NCBI GenBank assembly: GCA_963771465.1
Contig: CAVYTU010000007.1
Coordinates: 64,001-128,000, forward strand
Origin: an uncultured delta proteobacterium
GTDB taxonomy: Bacteria > Desulfobacterota > Binatia > UBA9968
Direction of reading: 5' to 3'
DNA: 64,000 nt
Both the position numbers and the translations under genes were made by a program. Under the pieces are notes generated by a model. That model ran no database searches and had not been told where the DNA came from. It saw nothing but the letters and a program-made list of their open reading frames with translations. This document shows positions 2,961 to 20,601 of this stretch, in pieces; within the stretch, counting starts at the first letter, position 1, and every line of letters begins with the position of its first letter.

Positions 2961-4323
2961 ATGAATTTTATTTTGGAGGTGTTCATGCCTGTGAAGCCAA
3001 CTTGCAAATCCGCGCTTGGAGTCGTGCTACTTTCCCTATGCGCCTACGGTGCGATTTTTTTTCAATCCACGGAGCTGTACGCTCAAGGCGAAATCAAAGC
3101 GACCTACCGTTTTCCTGAGCTGGCCATCAAGCAATTTCAGAACGCGAAGTTTCCCGGCAGCGTGATGAATGATCGCAAGGTGCAACTTGGTTCGGTCGGC
3201 AGCGATCTTTGGCGCAGGATAAGCGACGCGGGCGGCGAGTTTTGGACGGTGACGGATCGCGGACCCAATGGTCAAGTTCGCGTCGACGGGCGAAACCGCC
3301 GCACCTTCTGGGTGCCGGAGTTCAATCCCGTGATTCTCCGGGTCAAAACTGAGGGCGATTCAATTCAAGTGCTGCGAGACTATTCCGATCGTCGGCCGTT
3401 CTGGCAAGCCCGTTACCGGTATGCCCAATCTCAAGGGAGTCGATGAAACTCCCTACGATTATACGGCGCGTAAAGAATTGGAATTTAACGTTAATGGTCT
3501 CGATACCGAAGGATTGGTGCGGACCAAAAACGGCGAGTTTTGGCTCTGCGACGAATATAGCCCTTCGCTACTGCGGGTGGATCGGAGCGGTAAGGTGGTC
3601 AAACGGTTTGTCCCTGCGGGACTCGATCTGCCGGGCGCGGATTATCCAGTGGAGGCGAGCCTGCCGGCGGTGCTCGGTAAAAGAAAGATCAATCGCGGCT
3701 TCGAGGGCTTGGCGATGAGCTCGGACGAGAAATCACTTTATTTGATTTTGCAAAGCCCGCTGGGGATTCCCGACCGAAAGGCGGGCGAGGAGTCGCGCAA
3801 TACGCGCGTGTTCGTCTTCGACCGGGAAACGGAGCGAGTGACGGCCGAATATGTTTACCGCTTTGAAGAGGCGACGGAGTTCGATCCCCGGCCGAGAATG
3901 AACCGCGACGAAATGAAACTTTCCGCGGCGGTTTATCTAAATCCGACGACGTTACTGATCTTAGAGCGCACCGACTGGGTGGCCAAACTTTACACCGTCG
4001 ATCTCAGCGGCGCGACCAACATACTCAAGAGCAAGTGGGACGATCCGGCCACCACGCCCAGCCTCGAAGCGCTGGCAGATCCGGCGAGCGCTGATATCCG
4101 CGTGCTGCCCAAGGCCCTCGTCCTCGACCTCAGCCGATTCAAAGACATTCCGGAAAAGATCGAAGGCGTCGCCGTGATCAATCGCAACACAATTGCGATC
4201 TCGAACGACAACGACTTTGACACTGTGGAAAGCAAGTATGACGAGCAGGGCAATAACGTCGGCAATGGCAAGATGAGTCACATTTTTATCATCGCTCTCG
4301 ATAAGCCCTTGCCGTTGCAGTGA
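2961..4323 (+). pseudogene. Exported 'esterase-like activity of phytase' family protein, split by a single-base frameshift near 3375 (real lesion or sequencing error)
   Basis: ORF 2961-3446 has a signal peptide and the TDRGPN motif. ORF 3421-4323 has GLDTEGL, DEYSP, NRGFEGLA, KIEGVA and NDNDF. Removing one base in GTGCTGCGAGACT joins them (VL-ETIPIVGRSGKPVTGMPNL). Confidence 0.8.
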
Positions 4324-4473
4324 TTTTTGCGCATTGACCGACCGAAAGGTGGAGGTTGTTGCCCGCGCTTATGCGAATTCGTTAGTTCGAGCATAGGGCG
4401 CGCGCACTTCGCCATGCACTGGGAATTGACAGACTCGTTTCGGAAGTGATTCCCTCCATTTAAATATTCAGCG

Positions 4474-4502
4474 ATTTAACATAAATTTAATCGATCTGTA
4501 AT
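4474..4502 (+). promoter_or_regulatory. Candidate Pho-box-like repeats upstream of ppk1
   Basis: ATTTAAC-ataa-ATTTAAT-cgat-CTGTAAT, 11-bp period, about 100 bp before the ppk1 start. Confidence 0.5.
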
Positions 4503-4601
4503 GATTCGCGATCGGTTTGGCGCGAAGAAAAAGTTAGGATCACTGGGTTTTCACTGCGCCTGGTGTCGCGCCGGAGCGAATAATTGTCGAGGTACCCCAC
4601 G

Positions 4602-6692
4602 ATGGAGCCCAATCTTTACATCAATCGCGAACTGTCATGGTTGGAATTCAACCGGCGCGTGCTGCAAGAAGCCAAGGACGAGAGCGTGCCGCTGCTCGAA
4701 CGGGTTAAATTCCTCGCCATCTTTAGCTCCAACCTGGATGAATTCTTCATGGTGCGCGTGGCGCGGCTTAAACGCATGGTTTTTGAAGCCGATCAATCGG
4801 TCGATCCCGATGGCCTCACGCCGGCAACCACGTTGACGTCGATCTCGGCGCGCATGCACGAGCTGGCTGATGAACAGCATTCCTGTTTTCTCAACACCAT
4901 CATGCCCCAACTGAGCGCCGAAGGAATTCATCTCGTTCGTCCCGAAGAGATGAATGGCGAGCAGGAGAGATTTCTCGAAGATGTGTTTCACCGAACGCTC
5001 TATCCGATCGTTACGCCGCTCGCCATCGACCCTGGCCATCCGTTTCCCTATTTAGCCAACCGCTCGCTCTGCTTAGTCGTTTCGTTGCGGCCGACGGTGG
5101 TTTCGCGCCTGCCGCACACCGATCTTTCCATCCTGCATATTCCGACCCAGGTCGCGCCGCGCTTTATCTCGCTTCCCGGCCGCGAAGGGCAGCATGCCTT
5201 CATGCTGCTCGAAGATGTGCTGCGGCACTACTTGCCACGGCTTTATCACGGCTTCGAAATCGTTTCCTGCCAGGCGATCCGCGTCACCCGGGACGCTGAT
5301 TTTTTAATTTCACGGCGGCGCGATGAGAGTCTCATGATGACGATTGAAAAGGGCGTGCGCGACCGCCGCATGGGCGATGCCGTGCGGTTGCAGTACGATC
5401 CGGATTTGCCGCGTGAAATCGTCGCTAAACTGGTGGACGAGCTTGAGCTGACCAGCGAGGATCTTTATTCCGGCAGAGGCTTCACCGCTTTCACCGATTT
5501 GTTCCAACTGTATGCCGCCGTGAACATGCCCAAGTTGAAAGACCGGCCGCAGACGGCTGTGCCAGTGCCGGGGTTCGAGCGGGCGGCGGATATGTGGAGC
5601 GCGATTCGCGGCGGCGATGTGTTGACGTTTCACCCCTATCAGAGCTTTGACGCGGTGACCCGCTTTGTCGACGAAGCGGCGTTGGATCCGAAAGTGCTGG
5701 CGATCAAGATGACGCTATATCGCGTGAGCCCGACCTCACCCATCGCGCAGTCGCTGCGCCGCGCCGCTGAAGCGGGGAAAGAAGTCTCGGTGCTGGTCGA
5801 ACTGCAAGCGCGCTTCGACGAGGAAGCAAACATCACGTGGGCGCGCGCCTTGGAAGAAGTCGGCGCTCATGTCGTTTACGGCATGGTCGGTTACAAGACC
5901 CACTGCAAGGTGTGTTTGGTGGTGCGCCAGGAGGCCGACGGCATCCGACGCTACTGTCACTTGGCGACGGGAAATTACAACGTGCGCACCGCCGGCATCT
6001 ACAGCGACTTGGGCCTGTTCACGTGCCGCGAATCATTCGCGCAGGATCTGACCGAGCTGTTCAATCTGCTGACCGGCTACACGCGACCGCAGAAGTTCAA
6101 CCATTTAATATTGGCTCCGATCGGCTTGCGCGAACATTTCATAACCCATATCCGCAAAGAAGCGGACGTCGCCCGCGGCGGCCGTCCGGCGCGCATCATC
6201 GCCAAGATCAACAGCTTGATCGATCCGGCCATCATCGAAGAACTTTACCTCGCCAGCCAGGCCGGAGTGCAGATCGATTTAATCGTGCGCGGCATGTGCA
6301 GCTTACGGCCCGGCGTCGCCGGCGTTTCCGAGCGCATTCGAGTGCTCTCCATCATCGACCGCTATCTCGAGCACGCCCGGGTTTTTTATTTTCTCAACGG
6401 CGGCGAGGCGACCTATTGGCTGGCGTCCGCCGATTGGATGGAGCGCAATTTCGATAATCGTATCGAAATCGCTTTTCCCATCCTCGATCCGCAACATCAA
6501 GCGAGGCTGAAAGAGATCTTGGAAATTCAGCTCTGTGACACGGTAAAAGGCTGGCAGATGCAAAGCGACGGCAGTTTCCACCGTGCCCCCAGCGGAGCGA
6601 GCGGAGAATGCCGCTCTCAGGAACGCTTGTACGAATTGATCAGGAGCAGCGCTACGGGTTTGAGCCTAAGTCTAAACAATCTCTCGAATTAG
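4602..6692 (+). CDS. ppk1: Polyphosphate kinase 1
   Basis: YINRELSWLEFNRRVL, SNLDEFFMVRV, HPFP, KMTLYR, ARFDEEANI, KTHCK, TGNYN and RYLEHAR motifs. Start set at ATG 4602. Confidence 0.97.
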   Translation: MEPNLYINRELSWLEFNRRVLQEAKDESVPLLERVKFLAIFSSNLDEFFMVRVARLKRMVFEADQSVDPDGLTPATTLTSISARMHELADEQHSCFLNTIMPQLSAEGIHLVRPEEMNGEQERFLEDVFHRTLYPIVTPLAIDPGHPFPYLANRSLCLVVSLRPTVVSRLPHTDLSILHIPTQVAPRFISLPGREGQHAFMLLEDVLRHYLPRLYHGFEIVSCQAIRVTRDADFLISRRRDESLMMTIEKGVRDRRMGDAVRLQYDPDLPREIVAKLVDELELTSEDLYSGRGFTAFTDLFQLYAAVNMPKLKDRPQTAVPVPGFERAADMWSAIRGGDVLTFHPYQSFDAVTRFVDEAALDPKVLAIKMTLYRVSPTSPIAQSLRRAAEAGKEVSVLVELQARFDEEANITWARALEEVGAHVVYGMVGYKTHCKVCLVVRQEADGIRRYCHLATGNYNVRTAGIYSDLGLFTCRESFAQDLTELFNLLTGYTRPQKFNHLILAPIGLREHFITHIRKEADVARGGRPARIIAKINSLIDPAIIEELYLASQAGVQIDLIVRGMCSLRPGVAGVSERIRVLSIIDRYLEHARVFYFLNGGEATYWLASADWMERNFDNRIEIAFPILDPQHQARLKEILEIQLCDTVKGWQMQSDGSFHRAPSGASGECRSQERLYELIRSSATGLSLSLNNLSN

Positions 6693-7622
6693 TTTCCGCC
6701 AGGAGTCTAATTCTCGTTTTGGTTTAACTAGATAGGCCAACTCCCGACAGTATCGCTTGAGCGCTCGATAAAACCCCCTATTACCTTCCAACTTGAGCAG
6801 TATACGACGCAGCTTGGCGGTGTCGCCGCATGGATAGTAACCGGGGAATTTGGCGCCCAGCGTGCCGACCAGGCCGGGAATTTTTGACGCCACCACGGGA
6901 ACACCGCTCGCTAACGCCTCCGACAAGACGTTTGAGCTGCCTTCCATCTTCGATGTGATGCAGACGAGATCGCTGGCCGCCATCTTTGCTCGCGTGCGTC
7001 GGTGCGAAAGTTGGCCGATCCAACGGTAACGCGGGTTGCGAGCGGCCTCAGCCTTTGCCTCAGCGCCCAGTCGCGAATCCAATGCTTGACCAACGTGGGT
7101 GACTTGAATGCGCGACTCGGCGGGCAAGTTGCGCACGGCGACGCGCGTGCGCAGCGGATCTTTTTCTTCGCGCAGATGGCCGACGACACAGACGTTAAAG
7201 CTCACGCTTCGTTTCGGAGTGCTGGCTCGGACCGCCTCAGCCGACTGATAGATCACTTGAGTTTTGGCCTGCAATCGCCTGGGTAATTCTCGCAAGGCCA
7301 TCTTTTGCAGCGCCACAAGCCGGGTGGCCAGCTCAAGGGATCGTTTAGCTTTGGGATCGACGTGAATGTCGCGATAGACATCGGTGCCGGTCAGCACGAC
7401 GATGAGCGGCAGGATGGGATGACGGTCATGAAAACGCCGAATCGAATCGTAGCTGCGCCGAGCGTGGAGCGCGATGAGCAGATCGCAGGCCTTACCGTCG
7501 TAGCGTTGCGTCACGCGCACTCGGTGGCCGAGTTTTTTTAGGATTCCGGCCCAGCGCACGGCGGTGATCTTGTTGCCGTTGTTGATTTTCAGCGGCGCCG
7601 GCGTGACCAGTTGAATTTTCAC
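6672..7622 (-). CDS. senB: Selenosugar synthase SenB-like GT-B glycosyltransferase (TIGR04348-type)
   Basis: N-terminal VTPA..NNGN.ITA.RW, ALHARRS, LTGTDVYRD, VGHLREEKDP and SKMEG..NV.SEA motifs. Lies directly downstream of a SenA/EgtB homologue. Confidence 0.85.
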   Translation of the reverse strand: MKIQLVTPAPLKINNGNKITAVRWAGILKKLGHRVRVTQRYDGKACDLLIALHARRSYDSIRRFHDRHPILPLIVVLTGTDVYRDIHVDPKAKRSLELATRLVALQKMALRELPRRLQAKTQVIYQSAEAVRASTPKRSVSFNVCVVGHLREEKDPLRTRVAVRNLPAESRIQVTHVGQALDSRLGAEAKAEAARNPRYRWIGQLSHRRTRAKMAASDLVCITSKMEGSSNVLSEALASGVPVVASKIPGLVGTLGAKFPGYYPCGDTAKLRRILLKLEGNRGFYRALKRYCRELAYLVKPKRELDSWRKLIREIV

Positions 7623-7631
7623 GATGGCAGT

Positions 7632-9059
7632 TTATTGGGCGCAGGTGCGAAAGCCGGCCCAAACGTCGCGCCGGTCAGGCGTGTAGAAGTTGCGCCAGCT
7701 GTTGCGGATCAGCAGCGACGAAGTGGCCCAACAACCGCCGCGCAGAACTTTATGGGTGCCGAACCAGGGCTGTGAGTATTCCTTGTAAGGATCGACGCTA
7801 AAGCCTGGATAGGACACGAAATTGTCGGCGGTCCATTCCCAAACGTTGCCGATCATCTGGCGGCAGCCGAAGGCGCTGTCACCGGCGCCATGCGCGCCGA
7901 CCTCGACGATTCCGCCGTCGCTCCAATCGAGATTGGCATGTTGCTGGGCGGGAGAATTATCACCCCATGGATAATAGCGACGCCGCTTAGCAAGCCCGGC
8001 TCCGTTGGTTGCTGGTTCGCCGGACGCCGCCACTTCCCATTCCGCTTCAGAGGGCAATCGCCGGCCAGCCCACCGGCAAAACGCTTCGGCTTCGTACCAA
8101 CTGACATGCGCCACCGGCAGGTCTTCGTTGAGCAAGACATACTTGTCGTACACGCGTTGCTGCCAGCGCCCGTTGTCGAGCGGTTGCCAGTAGACCGGAT
8201 GGTCGAGTGTCTCTTTGAACGCGGTCAATTCCACCGGCTCGTTCAGGGTCTTATTAAAAAACTTGGCAAAGGACTTTTCCAATTGTGGCGCGCCGCCGGA
8301 TTCGAGCCATTGCCAGCCCTCGGCGCTCCAATATTTTCTCTCGCTGTAGCCGCCTTCTTCGACGAATTCTAAAAACTCGCCGTTGGTCACCGGCGCGCGG
8401 GCGATGCGAAACGGTTTGAGCTCGACCTCGTGGGCCCATTTCTCGTTGTCGAACACAAACGGAAGGTTCTTGTTGGCGCCGATCGTGAACTTGCCGCCGG
8501 GAATTTCCACGTCGCCAGGACAGGCGCGTTGATCGACATCGGCGAAAGCAGTTGGTTGGAGGAACGGCGGTGGTTGATATCCAAGCGTCTGGCGCGTGTA
8601 GGCGAGGGCTTCGGCGTGCATGCCTTCGTGAAACGTGGTTAGCCAATAAAAATAAAACTCGTCGGGCGATAGCTCAGACTTGCTGTCGATAGCTGCGATA
8701 CAACGCTCAAGCACTTCGTTCATGTAAGCCAGCGTATCGGTGCGGCTCGGCAGCAACAGTTCCCAGCGCGTGTCATGGGCGACATCGGTGGAGTTATAAA
8801 GCCGGTCGCCATGCTCCAGGATCGGCCGATCTTTACGTAAGTGACGCAGCGTCCAAAATTCCTGAGTCCACGCGACGTGGCCAATTTCCCATAACGGTGG
8901 ATTGACGATGGCGATACGCGGTCCGATCATCTGGCTATCGTCAAGGTCGACGACCAGGCTGAGCAAGCGGTCACGGAACTCGCGCATGGTGGCGATCAAT
9001 TGGTGCACGCTCATCGCGGCGATAGGACTGGCGGTCGCGCTGGAAATCATCGTTGGCAT
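7632..9059 (-). CDS. senA: Selenoneine synthase SenA (EgtB-family non-heme iron enzyme: DinB-like + FGE domains)
   Basis: NPPLWEIGH and FHEGMHAE supply the 3-His iron site. Also VAHDTRW, FVFDNEKWAH, RLPSEAEWE, GNVWEWT, PYKEYSQPWF and RNFY..DRRD. Adjacency to senB favours SenA over plain EgtB. Confidence 0.85.
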   Translation of the reverse strand: MPTMISSATASPIAAMSVHQLIATMREFRDRLLSLVVDLDDSQMIGPRIAIVNPPLWEIGHVAWTQEFWTLRHLRKDRPILEHGDRLYNSTDVAHDTRWELLLPSRTDTLAYMNEVLERCIAAIDSKSELSPDEFYFYWLTTFHEGMHAEALAYTRQTLGYQPPPFLQPTAFADVDQRACPGDVEIPGGKFTIGANKNLPFVFDNEKWAHEVELKPFRIARAPVTNGEFLEFVEEGGYSERKYWSAEGWQWLESGGAPQLEKSFAKFFNKTLNEPVELTAFKETLDHPVYWQPLDNGRWQQRVYDKYVLLNEDLPVAHVSWYEAEAFCRWAGRRLPSEAEWEVAASGEPATNGAGLAKRRRYYPWGDNSPAQQHANLDWSDGGIVEVGAHGAGDSAFGCRQMIGNVWEWTADNFVSYPGFSVDPYKEYSQPWFGTHKVLRGGCWATSSLLIRNSWRNFYTPDRRDVWAGFRTCAQ

Positions 9060-9140
9060 TTCGGCATTTGTCGCGAAATTCTTGACCGATTCAATTGGCC
9101 GAGAATTTATTCTACTTGATTTGATGGATATCGCTACCCG

Positions 9141-10283
9141 TCATAGATCTGAAATCAGTTTTAACATGGCCGCGCGCCAGGGCGCTAATTCTTTCACCCA
9201 GCGTCGACCACGATTGCGTTCGACGTAGGCGCATGCTGCCCGCAGTCGGCGCGTCTCGGCTGGTGTTAGTTGCAGCGCGCGTTTATCCTGTTTGGCGGCG
9301 ATGCTCGCTTCAGCATAACTCCTGAGCGCCCGCCACTGAGGTAACGCCGCGGCGCCGAAGCGCTGGCGAACGATTTTCGTCCAGGACGATTCCGCTCGGT
9401 ACTTGGCTGGCGCCCAGGCGTAATCGAAGCAAGTCGCTAACGGTAGGAAGCTCAAATCTTCCTGGAGCAATGGATTGTTGAGATAGCCGTAGACGCATTC
9501 CGGCAAGCGCGGGTCGCGTCCCGTCAGTGGCGTGAGATGCAACTCGTCACTCATGGACAGGTCGTTTACCGGATAATTGTCCCATAGCAGCAGGGGGCGC
9601 TCGATCTTTTTGACGATGCGCTTCACATGAGAAAGAGCGATGCTCTTTGAAACCACTGATGGGCCGGTCCAGAAGCAGGGGACGTCGGACGGAAGATAGC
9701 GAACCAAAGTTTCAAGAAAGTTCAGCTCGAATTTGCCGAAGACCCGTTCGAGCAGCGCATCTTCGCTGTAATACGAAGGACAAATCCACCACTCGACGTC
9801 GCTCCAACTCGACGGCTGCGCGGCAATGATTTTTGCCATCCAAGTCCCTTCGGCCCGCGCCAGACTATTCTTGAACGCGCGCCGGTCGCGCGCATCGGTC
9901 AAGCGCGAAGGAATATCGTCGAACAGCACGGCGAAGGTGCGCACGCCGGCATCGTAGAAGCGCTGCGCTTTGCGGAGAAGGATGCGAACGGCGTCATCGT
10001 CGCCAAAGTACAAACCTTCGCCGGGATGAAAACCGTAGACGAAATCGATTTGATGTTTATTTGCAGCTCTAATTAAGCGCAGTAGCTCACGCCATTGCGC
10101 CGCGGGGTAAGGTCGTCGCCAAAGTTTGCGGTGATAGGGATCATCCTTGGGCGCATAGAGATAGGTGTTCATACCGCGCGCCGCGCCAAATGCAAACAGA
10201 CGCCGCCGGTGCGCCATCGACCACAGCGGACCGAAGAAGCCTTCGACGATGCCGCGGCGCTGAAAAGTCTTGGCAGGGTTCAT
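9141..10283 (-). CDS. GH84 beta-N-acetylglucosaminidase (O-GlcNAcase-like), no signal peptide
   Basis: RGIVEGFFG, YLYAPKDDPYHR, catalytic FAVLFDDI dyad, CPSYY, WTGP and LWDNYPVND. Confidence 0.88.
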   Translation of the reverse strand: MNPAKTFQRRGIVEGFFGPLWSMAHRRRLFAFGAARGMNTYLYAPKDDPYHRKLWRRPYPAAQWRELLRLIRAANKHQIDFVYGFHPGEGLYFGDDDAVRILLRKAQRFYDAGVRTFAVLFDDIPSRLTDARDRRAFKNSLARAEGTWMAKIIAAQPSSWSDVEWWICPSYYSEDALLERVFGKFELNFLETLVRYLPSDVPCFWTGPSVVSKSIALSHVKRIVKKIERPLLLWDNYPVNDLSMSDELHLTPLTGRDPRLPECVYGYLNNPLLQEDLSFLPLATCFDYAWAPAKYRAESSWTKIVRQRFGAAALPQWRALRSYAEASIAAKQDKRALQLTPAETRRLRAACAYVERNRGRRWVKELAPWRAAMLKLISDL

Positions 10284-10540
10284 GCCGCGCTAATTTCGCA
10301 CAGCAGCGCTGGAGGAACAAGATTGCGGTATTTAATTGGCGTGAGGCGCGGAATAATTTAGCGATTTGGTACGGAAGTAGTGAGACCCGCTGCGCTTTCC
10401 TGCACACTTTCGTGGAAAGGTAATCCAGAGTTTTAAGAGGTTGCGCGCGATACTCGGGCGATGGGCATGCAGCTCGTCCGTCCACTAGTGGAAAACGTAG
10501 CCTGAGTTACGATTCGGGTTTAAACCTCTCAGGCGGTTCG

Positions 10541-11401
10541 CTAGCTCTTCAAAAACGGCACGCCCAGGCGCATCAGGTCGTCGAAGGCATCCCAATGCAC
10601 CATGTGCTTGCAGCCATTGACAATGTGGAGGTTGAGCTGCGGTTGTTGTTGTTTGAGCAATTCGGCGCGTTCGCCGGCGTGTGCCCGGTCCTCGCGGCCA
10701 AATATCATCAATAGCGGCATCTTCAGGTCGGCGAGTCTCTCCCATAACGGCTTGGCCGGCGCCGCGCCGCCCGCCGGCGCGTCGTGACTCTGGCGTTCCT
10801 GGTGCGCGATGAAATTGCGACCAGTCATGCGGCTGTGGCGTATGGCCACGTCTTCGTCCGAGATCAAGGCATGGTTGAAGGTGTCCGCCTGCAGGAGTTT
10901 GCGGGCATCCTCCAGCGTCGGTTCCTTTTGCGCCATCTCTTTGTCGACGCGCGCCTGTACCGCTTCGTACCTGCCGACCTGCGCTTCGGTCTGCAGCGGC
11001 AGCAAAGAGCCGGTGCCAAGAATGACGACATGTGAATAGCGGCTCGGGTCGTCCAATGCCAGTTGAATCGCGAAGCCGCCCGAGCGCGAGTGCGCGATCA
11101 GCGCGGTCTTGCCCAGTCCCGCGGCATCGATGAATTTCGGGATGGAATTGCGTTGCTGCGCCGTGCTTTGCTTGGCGGGAATTTCGGAAAGGCCAAAGCC
11201 GGGAAGGTCAAAGGCAACCGCGCGAAATCCGGCCCTGGCAAATGGGCCAAGATTGCGCAGAAACACGTCCGCCGAGCTGCCGAGCGACGCGCCATGCAGA
11301 AACAGCAGCGATGGCCCTGAACCTTCTTCGATATAACGAAGTTGCAGTCCATCGACGCTAACAAACTTGTCTTTCGGTTTGATTCTTTCCACAGTATCCA
11401 T
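10541..11401 (-). CDS. Alpha/beta-fold hydrolase
   Basis: FLHG, DLPGFGLS, nucleophile elbow AHSRSG, GREDR acid and CKHMVH histidine. Confidence 0.85.
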   Translation of the reverse strand: MDTVERIKPKDKFVSVDGLQLRYIEEGSGPSLLFLHGASLGSSADVFLRNLGPFARAGFRAVAFDLPGFGLSEIPAKQSTAQQRNSIPKFIDAAGLGKTALIAHSRSGGFAIQLALDDPSRYSHVVILGTGSLLPLQTEAQVGRYEAVQARVDKEMAQKEPTLEDARKLLQADTFNHALISDEDVAIRHSRMTGRNFIAHQERQSHDAPAGGAAPAKPLWERLADLKMPLLMIFGREDRAHAGERAELLKQQQPQLNLHIVNGCKHMVHWDAFDDLMRLGVPFLKS

Positions 11402-11673
11402 GAGATTATCTCCTCTTAGGGCAGAATAAAGATTCTAATCCAGCTGCGCGTTGCCACGTAACGGGCGAGGCAGCTCCATGGCGACGTCGTTCAAGTTTAG
11501 GAACTCTGTACAGAAAACTTAATCAATGTTTCTGACCGGACCTATAGCGCCGAACCGGCGAGGTGTCAATTGCGCGAGCGTTTCGTGATCGTCGTAGCGT
11601 TGCTTCTGCTGGGTAAGGTTTACTTGCCAATGTTCCTGGCATTGCGTAGGATCGAATCGGTTGAGCGACTCTC

Positions 11674-12486
11674 ATGCGCATTGCCACTCAAGCCGTTACA
11701 TTTTGTTTTGCCACCGCGTTGCTCGGGTTGCCGCTATTTGAATCGGATGGCGCCGATTCCAAAGCCGCCTCGGACATGATTCGCGTTCCCGCTGGCCCAT
11801 TCCTGATGGGCAGCAACAACGGGCCGGAAGATGAGCGGCCACAGCATCAAGTTAACGTCGCCGAGTTTTTCATCGACCGAACTAAAGTGGCTAACGCGCA
11901 TTTCGCACAATTCGTGAATGCGCGCGGAGTGAAGTCAGCCGACGGACAAATATGGTACGATAGCGATGATAACGACGCGCGGATTCATCGGCGCGACGGT
12001 AAATGGCAGGCCGATGCCGGCCATGAGAATCATCCGGTGGTGGAAGCTTCTTGGTACGGCGCGTCGGCGTATTGTTCATGGGTTGGCAAGCGTTTGCCCA
12101 CCGAAGCGGAGTGGGAGAAGGCGGCGCGCGGTACGGATGGCCGAAAATATCCCTGGGGCAACGATGCGGTGGATTCAACGCGGGCGCATTTCAATGGCGG
12201 CTGGAACGATTTCCGCCCGGTGGGAAGTCTTCCCAAAGGCGCGAGTCCATACGGCATGCTTGACGCCGCGGGCAACGGCTGGGAATGGGTGAGCAGCGCC
12301 TATATGCCTTATCCTTACAATACCAACGACGGGCGCGAAGATTTTACCAAGGCGCAAGTGCGCGTCACGCGCGGCGGCGGGCAGGATTCGCGAGCCGACG
12401 AATTGGCCACCACGCATCGCGGCCGCCATGTGTCGCGCAATCCGCGCGGTGGCCATCACAACATCGGCTTTCGCTGCGCTCGCTGA
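11674..12486 (+). CDS. Exported FGE-sulfatase/SUMF1-fold protein (EgtB C-domain/PvdO-like)
   Basis: N-terminal hydrophobic signal, GPFLMGS, DERPQH, HPVVEASW, RLPTEAEWEKAARG, GNGWEW and IGFRCAR. The FGE catalytic Cys pair is absent. Confidence 0.85.
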   Translation: MRIATQAVTFCFATALLGLPLFESDGADSKAASDMIRVPAGPFLMGSNNGPEDERPQHQVNVAEFFIDRTKVANAHFAQFVNARGVKSADGQIWYDSDDNDARIHRRDGKWQADAGHENHPVVEASWYGASAYCSWVGKRLPTEAEWEKAARGTDGRKYPWGNDAVDSTRAHFNGGWNDFRPVGSLPKGASPYGMLDAAGNGWEWVSSAYMPYPYNTNDGREDFTKAQVRVTRGGGQDSRADELATTHRGRHVSRNPRGGHHNIGFRCAR

Positions 12487-12501
12487 GTACCACTAGTTCC
12501 C

Positions 12502-13143
12502 ATGCCGGCCTATTTCATCACCCAAGGCGTACTGATCGGCTTCGTGGTCGCCGTGCCGGTTGGTCCGCTCGGAATCTTATGCATCAACCGCGCGCTGGTA
12601 GCGGGGGCGTTATGCGGACTTATTTCCGGCCTTGGGGTGGCGACCGCGGATGCGCTGGCGGCGAGCGTCGCGGCTCTGGGTATCTCGTTTGTATCGGGCT
12701 TTTTGATCAAGCACCAGATTGTTTTGCGTCTGGCGGGCGGTGTATTTCTCTGTTACCTCGGCGCACAGATTTATCGCACCAAACCGAAACCGGCGGCGGC
12801 GCCGCCGAGCGACGTCAACGGCTTGGTCAATGCTTACGCGACGACGTTCGTCCTAACCTTTTCCAACCCGGTGACGCTACTTTCATTTATCGCGATCTAT
12901 GCCGGCTGGCATGTGCCGAGCTTGCAGGGGCGATATCTTGCCGCGGCCCTGCTGGCGCTCGGCGTCCTTATCGGTTCGGCGCTTTGGTGGGTCTGTTTGT
13001 TCATTGGCATGACGGCGTTTCGCGAGAAATTCAGTCTCGACGCGCTCGTCTGGGTGCATCGTGTTTCAGGCGCATTGATGGTCGGGTTCGGTATCGTCAT
13101 ACTTTTAAGCTTGTCGCCGCTCAAGCAGGTATTCGGTATTTAA
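12502..13143 (+). CDS. LysE/RhtB family translocator
   Basis: G..VAVPVGP.GILCI.R, GLGVATADA and F.LTFSNP motifs; about six hydrophobic segments. Confidence 0.85.
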   Translation: MPAYFITQGVLIGFVVAVPVGPLGILCINRALVAGALCGLISGLGVATADALAASVAALGISFVSGFLIKHQIVLRLAGGVFLCYLGAQIYRTKPKPAAAPPSDVNGLVNAYATTFVLTFSNPVTLLSFIAIYAGWHVPSLQGRYLAAALLALGVLIGSALWWVCLFIGMTAFREKFSLDALVWVHRVSGALMVGFGIVILLSLSPLKQVFGI

Positions 13144-13150
13144 ATCTAAG

Positions 13151-14122
13151 ATGCTAAGTGAGTCGATCGCCTTTGTGAGCCGCGCCGGCGGCGTACCCAG
13201 CGTGATTAATGGCGCATTAGCGCTTTTTCATATTGGCTTGAATATTTTTCAATTTGTCATCTTGCCGTTGTGGCTTTTGCCGCTGGAGCGAAACTGGGCC
13301 TGGACGCTTTTGCCGCTGGCGCTATTGACCAATCCGTTCTGGAGTCTGATTCACGAGGCGATCCACGATCTATTTCATCCCAACCGCCGCGCGAACGCTC
13401 TGACCGGCCGCCTGCTGGCGATTCTGTTCGGTTCGCCGTTTCGCATCCTTCGGCAGAGCCATTTGCTCCATCATAAGCTCAATCGCATGCCGGTGGAGGG
13501 GACGGAATATTACGATCGCGGCAAAGGCGCTAAAGCTGCGGCGGCGCCGGGGTACTATTTTCAAATTTTGCTCGGCCTGTATCTCGTCGAAGTCGTGAGC
13601 ACGCTGGGTTTCCTTTTGCCGCGTCAATGGCTGCAACGATTCCGCGAAAAACATTTGCCGGCACACAGCGTCAGCAGCATTCTTATGCAGAACTGGCTTG
13701 GTGCGGAATCACTGCGCGAGATTCGCCTCGACGGTTTGCTCACCCTCGTGTGGCTGTCGTTTTCGTTTTGGTTATACGGTGAGAGCTGGCCGCTGCTGCT
13801 CGCCGTGTTAGTGGCGCGTGGCTTTTTGATTTCGTTTCTCGATAATGTGTATCACTACGAAACTCCGGTGAGCGATGTGTTCTTCGCAAAAAATCTCCAG
13901 TTGCCGGCGCCGCTCGCCAAGCTGCTGCTCAATTTTAACCTCCACGGCATTCACCATATCAACCCGGCGATCTCGTGGATCAATTTACCGAAGGCTTTCG
14001 AAGTCCAAGGGGCGAAGTTTCAAGGCCGCTACTTTGCCGCAGCCCTGCGCCAACTGCGTGGCCCCATCGCGCTCCAGGAATTGCCCCAAGGCGCGCCGAC
14101 GCTGCGCGTGCGGCCAAATTAA
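13151..14122 (+). CDS. Membrane fatty-acid-desaturase superfamily di-iron enzyme
   Basis: Three His boxes, HEAIH, HLLHH and HGIHH, separated by TM segments. Confidence 0.8.
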   Translation: MLSESIAFVSRAGGVPSVINGALALFHIGLNIFQFVILPLWLLPLERNWAWTLLPLALLTNPFWSLIHEAIHDLFHPNRRANALTGRLLAILFGSPFRILRQSHLLHHKLNRMPVEGTEYYDRGKGAKAAAAPGYYFQILLGLYLVEVVSTLGFLLPRQWLQRFREKHLPAHSVSSILMQNWLGAESLREIRLDGLLTLVWLSFSFWLYGESWPLLLAVLVARGFLISFLDNVYHYETPVSDVFFAKNLQLPAPLAKLLLNFNLHGIHHINPAISWINLPKAFEVQGAKFQGRYFAAALRQLRGPIALQELPQGAPTLRVRPN

Positions 14123-15147
14123 CCTTCTTTACGAAACAACAGCACCGAGAACCATTGATTAGCGTCGGTGAAGTGCTCGACCGGTGTGAGGCCGATGAAT
14201 CGTAATTGTTGTTGGAGCCGGTTGGCGTCGAATTTGCGGCTGATCTCGACGAGAATTTTTTCGTTCTGACGCCACTCGAATGCAGCACCAGCGTTCGGGA
14301 AGCGAATTTCCTGGGACGCGGTGGCGACGGCGTACATTTCGATCTGTTGCCATTCTGGATTGAACCAGGATTGGTAGCGCATTTGCTTCAAGTCGAAATT
14401 GGCGCCGAGCAAACCGTTGATGTTGCGAAAGACATTCAAGATAAATTCAGCGGTGATGCCGCGGCTGTCGTCGTAGGCGTCTTCGAGTAATTTTACCGGT
14501 TTTATCCGGTCGGCGCCGAGCAGAAGATAATCGTCGGGCCCCATGGCCGCCGATAGGGCGCGGAAAAAGCGCGGAAACTCGGTATGGTTGAAGTTGCCGA
14601 TGGTGCTGCCGAGAAAGACGAACAAGGTCGGCAGACTTTTTTCGATGGCGCAAATGCCGTCTTCGTAACGTGCGTGGATGCCGTGGAATTCCAACTGAGG
14701 AAAATCCTTTTGCACCGCGCTCTGTGAAGCGAGCAGGCCGGCGACGCTTACATCAATGGGCGCGAAGACACTCTGGCCGCGCTGGCGCGTTTGCTCGCTC
14801 AGCAAATGGATGGTTTTCTTGCTGTAACCGGCGCCGAGCTCGACGATGCATTTTACCGGCGCGGCGGCGACGATGTTCTTCGCGTTGGCTTCGAGAATGC
14901 TATTCTCCGTTCGCGTCAGATAATATTCCGGCAGGTCGCAGATATCTTCGAACAATTCCGAGCCGTGCTCGTCGTAGAGATGATAGGCTTCGAGCCAGCG
15001 CGGCTGATCCCAAAGCGTGGTCAAGATCGACATGGTTGGAATGGCGTCGAGGTCGGCGTCTTGCAAAGACCAGATGCCCGGCGGATTGGACAGCCAGCGC
15101 GAGCGCTGATCGGCGGCGAAGATATGTGGCGCTGTTGGTTGTGTCAT
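14119..15147 (-). CDS. egtD: L-histidine N-alpha-trimethyltransferase (hercynine synthase)
   Basis: YD..GSELF..I..LPEYYLTRTE, VELGAG..KKT, FLGSTIGN, AYDD..GITA.F, IEM and EISRKF motifs. Confidence 0.9.
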   Translation of the reverse strand: MTQPTAPHIFAADQRSRWLSNPPGIWSLQDADLDAIPTMSILTTLWDQPRWLEAYHLYDEHGSELFEDICDLPEYYLTRTENSILEANAKNIVAAAPVKCIVELGAGYSKKTIHLLSEQTRQRGQSVFAPIDVSVAGLLASQSAVQKDFPQLEFHGIHARYEDGICAIEKSLPTLFVFLGSTIGNFNHTEFPRFFRALSAAMGPDDYLLLGADRIKPVKLLEDAYDDSRGITAEFILNVFRNINGLLGANFDLKQMRYQSWFNPEWQQIEMYAVATASQEIRFPNAGAAFEWRQNEKILVEISRKFDANRLQQQLRFIGLTPVEHFTDANQWFSVLLFRKEG

Positions 15148-15246
15148 GAGTTGGGAGACTATAAAAGAAAATTGAACAGGATGCGACCACGGGTTTAAGT
15201 GCTAATTTCGCATGCTGAATAACCTGCGCAAGTAGGGAGGCGAAAT

Positions 15247-15328
15247 TCCGTTATGCAGCGCGAAAGCGGGTCATCCAGGTTCATTCCGGGGTTCAAAAGA
15301 AAGCCTGGATTCCCGCGGGAATGACGGA
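15247..15328. repeat. REP-like imperfect palindrome (GTCATTCCCGC...GCGGGAATGAC type)
   Basis: Outer arms TCCGTTAT / ATGACGGA and inner arms ATCCAGG / CCTGGAT, in the egtD-ABC divergent intergenic region. Confidence 0.6.
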
Positions 15329-15345
15329 GGGGAACCTTCGCTTTT

Positions 15346-16113
15346 ATGAACAGCAATGAAACAACGATCAGATTTTGGGATGTGAACTTCGTCCTGCCCG
15401 ACGGCAAGAAGTTGCTCGCCGATCTCAATCTTGAGGTCGCGAGCGGCGAGACTCTGGTTTTGCTCGGCCGCAGCGGCTCTGGCAAGACGACGATGATGAA
15501 GTTGATCAACCGGCTGATCGATCCGACTTCGGGGCGGCTAGAGGTGGAAGGGAAGGCGACGGTGGAGTGGGACCCGATCCAACTGCGCCGGCGCATCGGT
15601 TACGTCATCCAAGAGATCGGTTTGTTTCCGCATCTGACCATCGAGCAGAACATCGGGGTTGTCCCGCGGCTCGAAGGTTGGGAGCCGGATCGTATTGCCG
15701 AGCGGGCGCGCGAGCTGTTGAAACTCGTCGGCCTCGACGCCGACCGCTTCGCTCAGCGATTTCCCCGCGAGTTGTCCGGCGGGCAGCGCCAGCGTATCGG
15801 GGTGGCGCGGGCGTTGGCTGCCGATCCGCCGGTCATTCTTCTGGACGAGCCTTTCGGCGCCCTAGATCCAATCACTCGGCACGGCATTCAGCAAGAATTC
15901 AAATCCCTGCAACAGGAACTCGGCAAGACGATGGTGTTCGTCACGCACGACATCGCCGAGGCTTTTGTCCTGGCGACTCGCATCGCGCTATTGAAAGACG
16001 GCGAGATGGTTTTGCTCGGGCCGCCGGCTGAGCTGCTCGAATCGAGCCATCCGGAAGCGCGCGCTTTCGCCGAGTGCTTTCACGACGGTCAAAGCATCGG
16101 GAGACCGAAGTGA
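15346..16113 (+). CDS. ABC transporter ATPase, OpuC/ProV/EgtV (quaternary amine) family
   Basis: Walker A GRSGSGKT, KLINRLI, LRRRIGYVIQ, LSGGQRQR and LLDEPFGALDPITR. Confidence 0.92.
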   Translation: MNSNETTIRFWDVNFVLPDGKKLLADLNLEVASGETLVLLGRSGSGKTTMMKLINRLIDPTSGRLEVEGKATVEWDPIQLRRRIGYVIQEIGLFPHLTIEQNIGVVPRLEGWEPDRIAERARELLKLVGLDADRFAQRFPRELSGGQRQRIGVARALAADPPVILLDEPFGALDPITRHGIQQEFKSLQQELGKTMVFVTHDIAEAFVLATRIALLKDGEMVLLGPPAELLESSHPEARAFAECFHDGQSIGRPK

Positions 16114-17672
16114 CGCTGCTGGAATTCTTCACCCACAACAGCGGCGAACTCGGCGAGCTGGTCTTAGAGCATTTATTTTTAGTCGTCGTTTCCACCGGCA
16201 TCGCCGTGCTGATCGGCGTGCCACTCGGTATCTTGCTGACGCGCAAACCGGGATTGAGTAAACCGATTCTCGGCTTCGCCAACATCATGCAGACGGTGCC
16301 GAGTTTGGCGCTGTTCGGTTTTCTCATTCCGCTCAATCTTTATCTATTCAATGTGAAGATCGTTGGCGGCATCGGCGCGCGCACGGCGATCGTCGCGCTG
16401 GTGCTTTATTCGCTCTTGCCGATCATCCGCAACACGTTTACTGGAATTTCCAATGTCGATCCGGCGATCCGCGAAGCCGGGCGCGGCATGGGCATGACCG
16501 ACCGTCAATTGCTTCTCCAAGTCGAGTTGCCGCTGGCGCTGGGCGTAATCATCGCCGGCGTGCGCGTGGCGACCGTGATTTGCGTTGGCACGGCGACGAT
16601 TGCCGCGGCGATCGATGCCGGCGGCTTGGGGCGCTATATTTTTCGCGGCCTGCGCGCCAATGATAATGTTTTGATTCTTGCCGGAGCGGTGCCCGCGGCG
16701 CTGATTGCCCTTGCCGCGGATTTACTTTTGGGCTACGTCGAGAAAACGATTCAGTCCGGGGCGGCGGTTAAGGTAAGCGGTCGCAAACTTTTATGGTCCG
16801 GCGCCGCGGCTCTGTTGGTTTTTCTCGCAGTAGCGTATTTCTTTTTAGGCAAAAGCGCCGGGCGCATCGCGGTAGGCTCAAAAGACTTCACCGAACAAGT
16901 CATTGTCGGTGAAATTCTCGCCCAGGCGATCGAAGCGAAAACCGGTGCCGAAGTGGTGCGCCGCTTCGATCTCGGCGGCAACTTAGCGCACGATGCGCTG
17001 ATCGCCGGCGAAATCGACGTCTATGTCGAATACACGGGCACGGGCTTACTGGCGATTCTCAAGGAAAAGCCGCTGTCCGATCCGCAGGAAGTTTATCGAC
17101 GGGTGAAGTCGGAATACGCCAAGCGCTTCAAGTTGGAGTGGACCGAGCCGCTCGGCTTCAATAATACTTTCGCCATTCTCGTCCGCGGCGATGACGCCAA
17201 AAAGCTCAATTTGAAAACCGTCAGCGACGCCGCAAAGGTCTCCAATCAATGGCGCGCCGGTTTCGGCCAGGACTTCATGTCACGCGCCGACGGTTATCCG
17301 GGATTTTCCAAAGCCTACGGCTTTCACTTCGAAGCGACACGCGAGATGGATTTGTCCTTGACCTACCGGGCGCTGGCGGAAAACCAAGTCGATCTGATCG
17401 CCGGTAATTCCACCGACGGTTTGATCTCGCGCTACGGCTTATTTCAGCTCGACGATGACCGCCGCTATTTCCCACCCTACGACGCCGTGCCGGTGGTGCG
17501 CCAGGCCGCGCTGGAAAAATATCCGGCGCTGCGCGAGGTGCTAAAACAACTGGGTGGCATTCTTAGCGTCGACGAAATGCGCAAGCTCAATTATGCGGTG
17601 GACGCTGAGAAGCGGCAGGCGAAGGATGTGGCGCGGGAGTTCTTACGGCAAAAACGGCTGCTCGATCATTGA
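16110..17672 (+). CDS. Fused permease + substrate-binding protein of a betaine-type ABC importer (EgtU/OpuBC-like)
   Basis: TMD with QTVPSLALFG and EAGRGMGMT loop, then SBP with GSKDFTEQ, EYTGT, NNTFA, STDG and FPPYDA. The GTG start overlaps the ATPase stop (GTGA). Confidence 0.9.
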   Translation: MTLLEFFTHNSGELGELVLEHLFLVVVSTGIAVLIGVPLGILLTRKPGLSKPILGFANIMQTVPSLALFGFLIPLNLYLFNVKIVGGIGARTAIVALVLYSLLPIIRNTFTGISNVDPAIREAGRGMGMTDRQLLLQVELPLALGVIIAGVRVATVICVGTATIAAAIDAGGLGRYIFRGLRANDNVLILAGAVPAALIALAADLLLGYVEKTIQSGAAVKVSGRKLLWSGAAALLVFLAVAYFFLGKSAGRIAVGSKDFTEQVIVGEILAQAIEAKTGAEVVRRFDLGGNLAHDALIAGEIDVYVEYTGTGLLAILKEKPLSDPQEVYRRVKSEYAKRFKLEWTEPLGFNNTFAILVRGDDAKKLNLKTVSDAAKVSNQWRAGFGQDFMSRADGYPGFSKAYGFHFEATREMDLSLTYRALAENQVDLIAGNSTDGLISRYGLFQLDDDRRYFPPYDAVPVVRQAALEKYPALREVLKQLGGILSVDEMRKLNYAVDAEKRQAKDVAREFLRQKRLLDH

Positions 17673-17804
17673 CCTCGGGAGGCGCACTTAGTTTTTCTTT
17701 ATTGGTTCGATGGCGCGGATTTGGCACATAACAGGAATCTGCACGAGATTGCCTAGAGACGGTGGAAATTCGGCGCGGCTTACCGCAGAAAGTCGGGTGG
17801 CACG

Positions 17805-18851
17805 ATGGCGAAAGTGAAAGGTTTTATCGACGCCGACGGACATGTGGTCGAAAGCGATGCCGAGTTGCTGGATTTTCTACCGCGGCCGTACCATGGGCGC
17901 GCTGACCTGCTCGCATTCCCGTTCTTTCCCACCCTGGACGGGTTTCATCGCCAAGCGCGGCGCGTCGCCGATGGCAAAGGCCGTTACATCGCCAAGGGCA
18001 GTTTGAAAGAGTGGCAAGATTTTCTCGATGAAGATCAAATCGCCTGGTCGGTGCTTTATCCCACCGCCGGGCTCACCTTCGGCTTGATCCGCGACAAGGA
18101 TTGGGCTTGTGCGGTTGCTGCCGGATACAACAATTATCTTTACGAGACCTTTACTAAACCGGAAAAACGTTTGAAGGGCATGGCGCTGATCCCGCTCCAA
18201 TCGATTCCTGACGCGGTGAAAGAATTGAAGCGCGCCGTGAAAGAACTCGGCTTCGTCGGCGCGATTTTGCCGGCGGTCGGATTGCGCCAGCCCTTCGGCG
18301 ATCGGAAATATTTCCCGGTTTACGAAGTAGCTGAGAAACTCGGTGCTTTGCTCGCCGTTCACGCCGCCCCGACACAGGGGATCGGCGTGGACAACTTTGA
18401 CCGCTTGATCGAGGTGCGCACGCTCAGCCACGGTTTTGGTCAGATGATTCAGATGACCAGTATGATTTATAACGGCGTGGTGGACAGGTTCCCGAAATTG
18501 AATATCGCCTACGCCGAGGCGGGCTGCGGCTGGGTGCCGTATTTACTCGAACGCATGGACATGGAGTACGAGCACCGCAACACGCAAGTGCCGGAGTGCA
18601 AAAAGTTGCCCTCGGAGCATTTGAAAAGCGGACACATCTTCATTCATTGTGAGCTCGAAGATCGCGCCATCCCGCAGGTGGCCGAGCAGCTACGCGACGA
18701 TATCCTTTTCTGTGCCACCGATTTCCCGCACGAGCCGCGCACCGAGTTTCGCGAGAATATTGAAAAATTCTTGGCGCGGAAAGATGTCCGCGAGGAGACC
18801 AAGCATCACTTGCTGTTCGAGAACCCCAAGCGCATGTATCCGCTGGCGTAG
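17805..18851 (+). CDS. Amidohydrolase_2 family protein (ACMSD/LigY-like TIM barrel)
   Basis: DADGH metal motif, VLYPT, EAGCGWVPY and ATDFPH. Confidence 0.85.
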   Translation: MAKVKGFIDADGHVVESDAELLDFLPRPYHGRADLLAFPFFPTLDGFHRQARRVADGKGRYIAKGSLKEWQDFLDEDQIAWSVLYPTAGLTFGLIRDKDWACAVAAGYNNYLYETFTKPEKRLKGMALIPLQSIPDAVKELKRAVKELGFVGAILPAVGLRQPFGDRKYFPVYEVAEKLGALLAVHAAPTQGIGVDNFDRLIEVRTLSHGFGQMIQMTSMIYNGVVDRFPKLNIAYAEAGCGWVPYLLERMDMEYEHRNTQVPECKKLPSEHLKSGHIFIHCELEDRAIPQVAEQLRDDILFCATDFPHEPRTEFRENIEKFLARKDVREETKHHLLFENPKRMYPLA

Positions 18852-19009
18852 CCGGAAGCTGCGATGGGAGAACTTGCTCGACTGTGCCGAGCTCGCCAAG
18901 AATTATGAGAGGAGTGAGAGAATATCCGTTAGTAGGTCGATAAAAAATGCTTCTGAGTCCTTTGACGATTCCAGAGCTCGTCCTGAGCTAGCCGAATGAA
19001 CGAACGCAA

Positions 19010-20479: not shown

Positions 20480-20532
20480 TGACTGGTAGCAAGTTCACTG
20501 TGTGACCGCAAACCGCTGATTTGTGGGAAGGT

Positions 20533-20559
20533 TTGACAAGCAAGGGCTTGTCCTATAAT
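20533..20559 (+). promoter_or_regulatory. Candidate sigma70 promoter for the bicupin gene
   Basis: TTGACA-N15-TATAAT: perfect hexamers but a short spacer. RBS GGAGG precedes the ATG at 20602. Confidence 0.5.
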
Positions 20560-20601
20560 TTTTTAGGACGATTTAACGATAGAAAATTGGAGGAATAAGC
20601 G

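Follow-up and report, generated by a model that had tools for sequence, protein, structure and literature searches.

An expanded, lineage-specific selenoneine locus with a sen-linked GH84 enzyme in an uncultured bacterium of the class Binatia

A real selenoneine locus, of an expanded type specific to its lineage, is present in a 64,000-nucleotide stretch of DNA from an uncultured delta proteobacterium of the class Binatia (assembly GCA_963771465.1, contig CAVYTU010000007.1, positions 64,001 to 128,000). This whole stretch is referred to below as the window, and the locus under study occupies its positions 6672-17672 as ten open reading frames (ORFs) with short gaps. The published selenoneine pathway consists of three enzymes, and the loss of sugar is taken as spontaneous. 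Besides genes for selenosugar synthase (senB), selenoneine synthase (senA), and a histidine methyltransferase (egtD), the locus holds added genes that are leads of unequal strength: a β-N-acetylglucosaminidase of family GH84 linked to the sen genes is well supported, an alpha/beta hydrolase (ABH) in the same operon is a moderate lead, and the remaining genes are weaker ones. Most likely, the GH84 enzyme would hydrolyse a selenoether formed as a dead-end product of the pathway; taken as a whole, this explanation stands slightly below an even chance.

The nine gene types that a first-pass annotation had named within these 11 kb are all where it placed them, and Pfam and NCBIfam models confirm every label. 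The genes of the locus, and one flanking gene, are as follows.

6672-7622, minus strand: senB, selenosugar (SeGlcNAc) synthase (TIGR04348, 401.7 bits; cut-off 300)
7632-9059, minus strand: senA, selenoneine synthase, a non-heme iron selenoxide synthase (NHISS) (NF041186, 482.2 bits; cut-off 420)
9141-10283, minus strand: sen-linked GH84 β-N-acetylglucosaminidase, 380 aa, without signal peptide (PF07555, 268 bits)
10541-11401, minus strand: ABH, a meta-cleavage-product-hydrolase-type protein whose gene opens the minus-strand block (PF00561, 69 bits)
11674-12486, plus strand: FGE-sulfatase-fold protein with a signal-like N-terminus (PF03781 only, 187 bits)
12502-13143, plus strand: LysE-family translocator, candidate exporter (PF01810, 79 bits)
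13151-14122, plus strand: membrane di-iron protein of the FA_desaturase family (PF00487, 77 bits)
14119-15147, minus strand: egtD, histidine N-alpha-trimethyltransferase, yielding hercynine (TIGR03438, 298.2 bits; cut-off 290.9)
15346-16113, plus strand: ABC transporter ATPase of the proV/OpuB type (TIGR01186, 285 bits, below the cut-off of 326.6; PF00005, 125 bits)
16074-17672, plus strand: ABC permease fused to an OpuAC-type quaternary-amine binding domain (PF00528, 71 bits; PF04069, 217 bits)
17805-18851, plus strand: Amidohydro_2 protein in the flank, of doubtful membership (PF04909, 99 bits)

The minus-strand block runs in the order ABH, GH84, senA, senB, with intergenic gaps of 257, 81, and 9 bases. 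Divergent from it, the FGE-fold, LysE, and desaturase-like genes are tightly packed on the plus strand; egtD is convergent on this trio, and the ABC ATPase gene is divergent from egtD and is followed by the permease-binding fusion. SenA, SenB, GH84, EgtD, LysE, the desaturase-like protein, and the permease-binding fusion each occur as a single copy in the 6.9-Mb genome. The arrangement is not a product of chance, since relatives and dozens of metagenome contigs show it as well, and near-identical DNA was found in soil and rhizosphere metagenomes from several studies.

Judged from its sequence, the iron enzyme of the locus is of the SenA type and not a cysteine-using EgtB. Curated NCBIfam equivalog cut-offs were applied to SenA, SenB, and EgtD, and all three proteins pass, in agreement with the first-pass annotation. 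Grouping of the SenA homologue with EgtB, which the annotation had raised as the outcome that would speak against it, was looked at and is not borne out: the EgtB model TIGR03440 gives the window SenA 310.3 bits, below its cut-off of 360, and the SenA residues are kept. The iron-binding histidines are H61, H144, and H148, which align with H51, H134, and H138 of EgtB, and the catalytic tyrosine Y425 aligns with those of EgtB and OvsA. In an alignment to Mycobacterium EgtB (4x8b), the thiol-binding residues R87 and D416 of the latter are replaced by H95 and Y459; replacement of Arg87 and Asp416 by His and Phe/Tyr is ascribed to all SenA proteins in a 2022 preprint (10.1101/2022.04.13.486033).

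The hercynine motif of SenA, Y428/N457/F458, lies at the positions of M401/Q430/A431 in OvsA, the ovoselenol enzyme, in which the triple change to YNF switches the enzyme to hercynine/C2 chemistry (PMC11030361). The catalytic tyrosine and the Y/N-F motif are common to all 37 aligned SenA homologues (34 distinct), drawn from relatives, Burkholderiales, and genomes with senA alone. Because this motif is kept and egtD lies in the locus, hercynine-dependent selenoneine synthesis is favored, and sequence features of this kind make it very probable. The nearest solved structure to the window SenA is in fact OvsA (343-352 bits, versus 242 bits for Variovorax SenA), as would be expected of an OvsA-like enzyme that selenylates C5 of histidine to give 5-selenohistidine or an ovoselenol-type product rather than selenoneine; however, the window SenA carries the YNF triple, scores higher against the OvsA-YNF mutant than against wild-type OvsA, and shares its locus with egtD, no other methyltransferase being among the genes scanned there, and this reading deserves almost no credence.

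Two side observations concern SenA homologues elsewhere. The genome holds a second NHISS-type gene of 456 aa (G000:C17:1132497-1133867; L146:8497-9867), which falls below all curated cut-offs (ovoA_Nterm 246/400, SenA 227/420, EgtB 226/360) and shows a Y..Y / N-W-Y motif unlike that of SenA; its 5′ neighbor encodes a 'selenium metabolism-associated LysR' regulator (NF040786, 264 bits versus 250) and its 3′ neighbor a PhnD/selenate-binding-like protein. Furthermore, three matches to the SenA model in relatives contain one in-frame TGA each (G014:C29:295865-297238, G001:C72:6925-7641, and G005:C68:44390-45424), which could be a sequencing error, a pseudogene, or selenocysteine.

With regard to SenB, the best solved structures for the window protein are SenB enzymes (216-221 bits), and alignment to RsSenB (8k5u) indicates that K154 (= K158), N17 (= N20), and T20 (= T23) are kept. 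It was reported that the K158-type lysine cleaves the Se-P bond and that the sugar-donor motif EGGAHV was defined on beta-proteobacterial SenB (PMC10891094). In the window this motif reads EGSSNV (6943-6963, residues 226-232), with E227 kept and Asn at the H235 equivalent, and the residue preceding the catalytic lysine is Glu, versus Val in the characterized enzymes. EGSSNV is present in 28 of 29 Binatia-type rows (EGSSNA in the other one), and the three Burkholderiales rows have EGGANV. Since EGGAHV was defined on beta-proteobacterial proteins, the window motif appears to be a variant of SenB rather than grounds for exclusion from the family, and the donor range may differ from that of the characterized enzymes. 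A SenB match of 361 bits in another family of the class (G093:C6:22468-23394) lies inside a 754-aa open frame and is a possible fusion.

EgtD, the third core enzyme, passes its cut-off by a small margin. The first-pass annotation had also supposed a complete make, process, and exchange system, which did not hold up: neither selD nor senC is found in the window, so that the canonical senABC co-location is absent. The only selD of the genome closes a selA-selB-selD run on another contig (G000:C14:200684-201736; L145:8685-9737). Its codon 20 is an in-frame TGA, in the context G-U-A-A-K and at the active-site Cys/Sec position, which suggests that this SelD contains selenocysteine. SelD gave no match in any of 20 regions around the senA genes of relatives. 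Because selD is lacking both in the window and in these regions, selenophosphate would be supplied in trans by the housekeeping SelD, and the locus is not self-contained.

Membership of the sen-linked hydrolase in GH84 is indicated by the family hidden Markov model, by a catalytic pair D122-D123 and a sugar-binding D241 that align with D119/D120 and D228 of TtOGA, and by the predicted TIM-barrel fold; the AlphaFold (AF2) model (pLDDT 91.9, pTM 0.90) has as its best fold match the Thermobaculum O-GlcNAcase 5diy (TMq 0.85). The protein belongs to a clade of small cytoplasmic GH84 enzymes, whose members have 371-402 aa and of which none carries a signal peptide. Phe17 is specific to this clade, and Tyr occupies the site in 98% of the 62 other GH84 proteins compared; in hOGA, the equivalent Tyr69 makes a stacking contact with the peptide and a hydrogen bond to the catalytic Asp (PMC3476531). 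The clade is further marked by Phe85-His86 and Tyr171, by an insertion around positions 175-182, and by numerous Trp residues; judged from the strand positions of the predicted model, these clade-specific residues would lie on the catalytic face of the barrel, where its strands have their C-terminal ends. Relatives are abundant in metagenomes, where a search at E ≤ 1e-60 gave no fewer than 753 protein clusters, the 120 listed being 69-100% identical. The source annotations of these clusters are only 'hyaluronoglucosaminidase' or 'beta-N-acetylglucosaminidase domain-containing protein', and several are from Candidatus Binatia. Fusions of GH84 to SenA or SenB were also sought, and the 88 longer proteins retrieved (E ≤ 1e-40) have a maximum of 38% identity and include none with a glycosyltransferase or FGE domain; there is thus no Rosetta-stone support for the link.

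The linkage of this hydrolase to selenoneine genes is apparent from phylogeny. A tree was built from 92 GH84 sequences, taken from 79 filtered genome-contig loci and the regions of relatives after removal of two duplicates. The sen-linked clade comprises 30 rows (SH-aLRT 99, stem length 0.58), 26 of which are beside senA, while the other four are found in genomes with an above-cut-off SenB elsewhere, namely three Burkholderiales metagenome-assembled genomes (MAGs) and one Binatia MAG (G064, flagged unpublished). By contrast, none of the 62 outgroup GH84 loci has SenA, SenB, EgtD, or other cluster genes within flanks of up to 10 kb, and the next-best GH84 proteins outside the clade reach at most 40% identity. 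As expected, relatives show synteny of the extra genes with senAB, most strongly for GH84, whose clade occurs only in sen-bearing genomes. One locus, L049, was left out of the tree on account of its split hit; its GH84 match (L049:10001-11120) consists of two overlapping pieces (71% and 60% identity), and the gene may be frameshifted in the MAG.

The neighborhood has been kept through several gene orders. GH84-senA-senB is found in the genus of the window and in a sister family with complete genomes, and GH84-ABH-senA-senB in two relatives (L038, which equals L122, of G034; and L128 of G019) and eight metagenome contigs. In three genomes of family f2, an FGE-like gene is divergent from GH84-senB and senA is far away, and one further genome (G036) has egtD-GH84-senB. 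A class-wide check was also made on an even sample of 201 genomes, with GH84-senB distances read from coordinates. SenB is present in 33 of them, 25 of which belong to the order of the window, and in 23 of these 25 a GH84 gene lies within 4.4 kb of senB on the same contig; the other two are broken at contig ends. Longer GH84 types are widespread in the class in genomes without SenB.

In the proposed mechanism, EgtD would provide hercynine, SenB would form SeGlcNAc from UDP-GlcNAc and selenophosphate (supplied by the Sec SelD of the selA-selB-selD operon), and SenA would join the selenosugar to hercynine as a selenoxide that decays to selenoneine and a released sugar. These steps follow from family membership and published biochemistry, and the roles of the accessory genes are inferred. 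SeGlcNAc as the donor of selenium is in keeping with the need of GH84 enzymes for a 2-acetamido group, and O-GlcNAcase cleaves thioglycosides with good leaving groups. According to the 2022 preprint (10.1101/2022.04.13.486033), the hercynyl-SeGlcNAc selenoxide formed by SenA has two fates, spontaneous elimination or reduction by dithiothreitol or other thiols to a stable selenoether, which was detected. As a dedicated accessory of the pathway, GH84 might hydrolyse the Se-GlcNAc bond of this selenoether, the dead-end product of the thiol-reduced selenoxide, to give selenoneine and GlcNAc, and it may also act on free SeGlcNAc. Such a rescue is a tentative assignment, to which we would give somewhat less than an even chance.

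Several points weigh against this assignment. The substrate is deduced solely from gene order and published side-products. When senA and senB separate, GH84 stays with senB and not with senA, and this persistent adjacency fits a role on the SenB product at least as well as one on the SenA product. None of the eight SenB genomes from other families of the class has GH84 on the senB contig, and the characterized senABC clusters work in vitro without GH84 (10.1101/2022.04.13.486033); on both grounds, GH84 is not essential. Moreover, three Burkholderiales genomes (L040, L043, and L047) carry a clade GH84 away from senA and senB. Their GH84 proteins nest inside the Binatia-type clade, which suggests that the gene was transferred on its own.

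Retaining glycosidases are known to hydrate glycals, and the best-surviving alternative is that GH84 serves salvage or detoxification by hydrating 2-acetamidoglucal to GlcNAc via the oxazoline-type intermediate usual for the family. This glycal was observed as the sugar expelled in the OvsA reaction, which its authors call analogous to that of SenA (PMC11030361), and 2-N-acetyl glycals are listed as hexosaminidase inhibitors in a paper citing Santana et al. 2016 (PMC6017319). The glycal fits such active sites and could be harmful if it accumulates, and the -1 site of the window GH84 is intact. On the other hand, no report of glycal hydration by GH84 was found in the open-access literature, and ovoselenol and canonical sen clusters release the same glycal yet have not been reported with GH84. 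Glycal hydration is a possibility to be kept in view, albeit a rather unlikely one.

A less probable alternative, which we regard as doubtful at best, is that GH84 hydrolyses free SeGlcNAc to GlcNAc and selenide and thereby restrains or recycles the pool of selenosugar. It would account for the position of GH84 directly beside senB in the three f2 genomes and in G036 with senA elsewhere, and for a 95% complete genome (G043) that keeps senA and lacks both senB and GH84; in addition, an ovsA mutant accumulates SeGlcNAc, and the free sugar therefore exists in cells (PMC11030361). However, a futile cycle beside the synthase needs regulation, none of which is visible, and the senB adjacency may be a remnant of an ancestral GH84-senA-senB order after senA had moved. 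Rescue of the selenoether is kept as the leading proposal for GH84.

Among the other added genes, the one for ABH, the presumed second accessory member of the operon, is the most conserved of the block (87-93% identity, versus 65-85% for its neighbors). Its best solved relatives are HsaD and BphD (about 95 bits), and it displays the Ser-Asp-His pattern of meta-cleavage-product hydrolases. Of the 20 metagenome contigs with both GH84 and senA, 11 also carry ABH, which in eight of them lies between the two; in many relatives, too, ABH is placed inside the operon.

The FGE-like protein has a hydrophobic, signal-like N-terminus, lacks a DinB domain, and has both FGE cysteines replaced (alignment to 6muj). 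The first-pass annotation had described a second FGE-fold protein; the fold was confirmed, and a role as a second C-Se/C-S synthase was ruled out by the missing DinB iron domain and FGE Cys pair. The protein probably acts outside the cytoplasm, and its gene is divergent from GH84 in families f1 and f2. RND-type efflux genes lie beside sen or FGE-like genes in two sister families (L231:13124-17598 in G037, where the pump follows the FGE-like gene, and L113:2431-6976 in G040), as an HlyD membrane-fusion protein with AcrB, or as a 1075-aa ORF; the family of the window has LysE instead.

Three His boxes are visible in the sequence of the desaturase-like protein. In the ESM Atlas, this protein and the FGE-like protein match only their own Pfam families. 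Neighbors were counted on 80 metagenome contigs from the desaturase alignment (62-100% identical, all of one lineage), with contigs having enough flank as the denominator.

LysE directly upstream of the desaturase-like gene: 62 of 62 assessable contigs
FGE-like gene near the desaturase-like gene: 38 of 42
GH84 near the desaturase-like gene: 13 of 15
senA near the desaturase-like gene: 11 of 14
egtD near the desaturase-like gene: 39 of 50
ABC ATPase near the desaturase-like gene: 26 of 36

LysE is a candidate exporter, and the ABC system, which has the architecture of EgtUV, OpuB, and OpuC (an ATPase and a fused permease/binding-domain polypeptide), may import a trimethylammonium compound, for which hercynine, selenoneine, ergothioneine, and a betaine are candidates. 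OpuB-type ABC genes were reported near 13.6% of NHISS genes (PMC13674229). With regard to the added sugar-removal, import, and export functions proposed in the first-pass annotation, the GH84-sen linkage stands, and import and export were overstated, being candidate roles drawn from family membership and gene order in one family. Additional caution comes from the binding domain, which is more like choline/betaine binders (240 bits to Thermoanaerobacter OpuBC-derived sensors and 185 bits to OpuCC) than like EgtUC (160-174 bits, ranking 12th and lower), and from the linkage of LysE-desaturase and egtD-ABC to sen genes in family f1 only; in the sister family with complete genomes, egtD is 16-45 kb from senA and the outer cluster genes are absent. 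Beyond the ABC genes, an M20 peptidase and Amidohydro_2 are also kept (on six and two metagenome contigs, respectively). Since these flanking genes have no obvious link to the pathway, part of the outer-gene synteny may reflect relatedness.

Several of these observations could be explained if the extra genes were neighbors by descent only, with GH84 a housekeeping GlcNAcase or protein O-GlcNAcase and the transporters ordinary osmolyte or amino-acid systems. The closest solved GH84 structure is a protein O-GlcNAcase, the ABC binding domain is nearest to choline/betaine binders, the flanking M20 and Amidohydro_2 genes are partly kept in family f1, and other GH84 types are common in the class without SenB. 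Nevertheless, the GH84 clade occurs in no genomes but sen-bearing ones, its gene has stayed in place across four gene orders, the outgroup loci show no sen linkage, the desaturase subfamily is found almost only in the sen-cluster context, and no GT41 O-GlcNAc transferase was found in the genome (99.36% complete; PF13844, no match at E ≤ 0.001). Shared descent as the sole explanation is very improbable.

A bolder extension of the selenoether proposal is that GH84 is the first natural selenoglycoside hydrolase, rescuing the selenoether in a thiol-rich cytoplasm, so that the sugar would be removed enzymatically during selenoneine biosynthesis, and that the FGE-like protein, LysE (or, in a sister family, RND pumps), and the betaine-type importer form a cycle of export, periplasmic use, and re-import in which selenoneine is shuttled as a redox agent. 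We consider this whole scheme unlikely.

As for the surroundings of the locus, a gene for polyphosphate kinase 1 (4584-6692) is convergent on senB, with ends that overlap by 21 bases, and adjoins the cluster in only one of the relatives (L127). Amidohydro_2 has at least eight paralogues in the genome and lies 3′ of the ABC genes in two relatives (L126 and L173). An ORF at 15195-15596 on the minus strand was treated as spurious, as it has no family match and overlaps the ABC ATPase gene. Within positions 4000-21000 of the window, Rfam gave no match at E ≤ 0.1, and a promoter and terminator scan returned nothing usable (8 promoter-like sites versus 5.6 ± 2.5 expected). One soil metatranscriptome library (X13) has contigs in all 30 bins of the same interval at even depth, and two other libraries have scattered pieces; such contigs may be DNA carried over into RNA libraries and establish neither transcription nor operon structure.

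The first-pass annotation had placed the locus in a lineage not usually linked to selenoneine. This is true of the open-access literature, in which no paper with both selenoneine and Binat* was found, and not of the genomes, where SenA is above its cut-off in 52 of 61 relatives (a tally that includes the unpublished G005 and G035). Likewise, no paper in the open-access literature, the supplements of the 2022 preprint apart, ties selenoneine to a glucosaminidase, the sole co-mention being an unrelated fungal paper, and a 2026 survey of NHISS-adjacent genes lists 30 families without GH84, LysE, or desaturase (PMC13674229). Because an abundant soil lineage ties a specialized GlcNAc hydrolase to senB and senA, cells may have an extra selectable step, for example one that rescues the dead-end intermediate after its reduction, salvages the sugar that has been expelled, or regulates the pool of selenosugar. 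GH84 could also raise selenoneine yields in engineered producers, and the exporter, importer, and secreted protein are concrete candidates for bacterial selenoneine release and uptake.

In comparison with the known senABC clusters of Variovorax paradoxus and Amycolatopsis (Kayrouz et al. 2022, 10.1101/2022.04.13.486033), the window locus has SenA and SenB orthologues with the defining residues, and egtD is co-located with them, as it is in 'a small subset' of the published clusters. It differs in having no senC, the role falling to a SelD that is the housekeeping Sec enzyme elsewhere in the genome, in the EGSSNV motif of SenB instead of EGGAHV, and in a SenA closer to OvsA than to Variovorax SenA. 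It also adds GH84, ABH, a secreted FGE-like protein, LysE, a desaturase-like protein, and an ABC importer.

The window GH84 shares the TIM-barrel, the Asp-Asp pair, and the sugar-binding Asp with the GH84 O-GlcNAcases (TtOGA 5diy, CpOGA/NagJ, BtGH84, and hOGA). Unlike them, it is small (380 aa), its C-terminal helical part is short, and it has Phe in place of Y69 of hOGA (PMC3476531), the insertion near 175-182, and clade-specific Trp residues. In contrast to protein O-GlcNAcase systems, no GT41 partner was found in its genome, and the gene is always tied to sen genes. The ABC system, finally, is like EgtUV of S. pneumoniae and H. pylori, for whose SpEgtU the ergothioneine-specific pocket residues are given as E375, R379, K242, and the G244/G273 region (PMC9732360), in consisting of two genes, for an ATPase and for a permease fused to an OpuAC-type trimethylammonium-binding domain, and it differs from EgtUV in a binding domain that scores higher to choline/betaine binders than to EgtUC.

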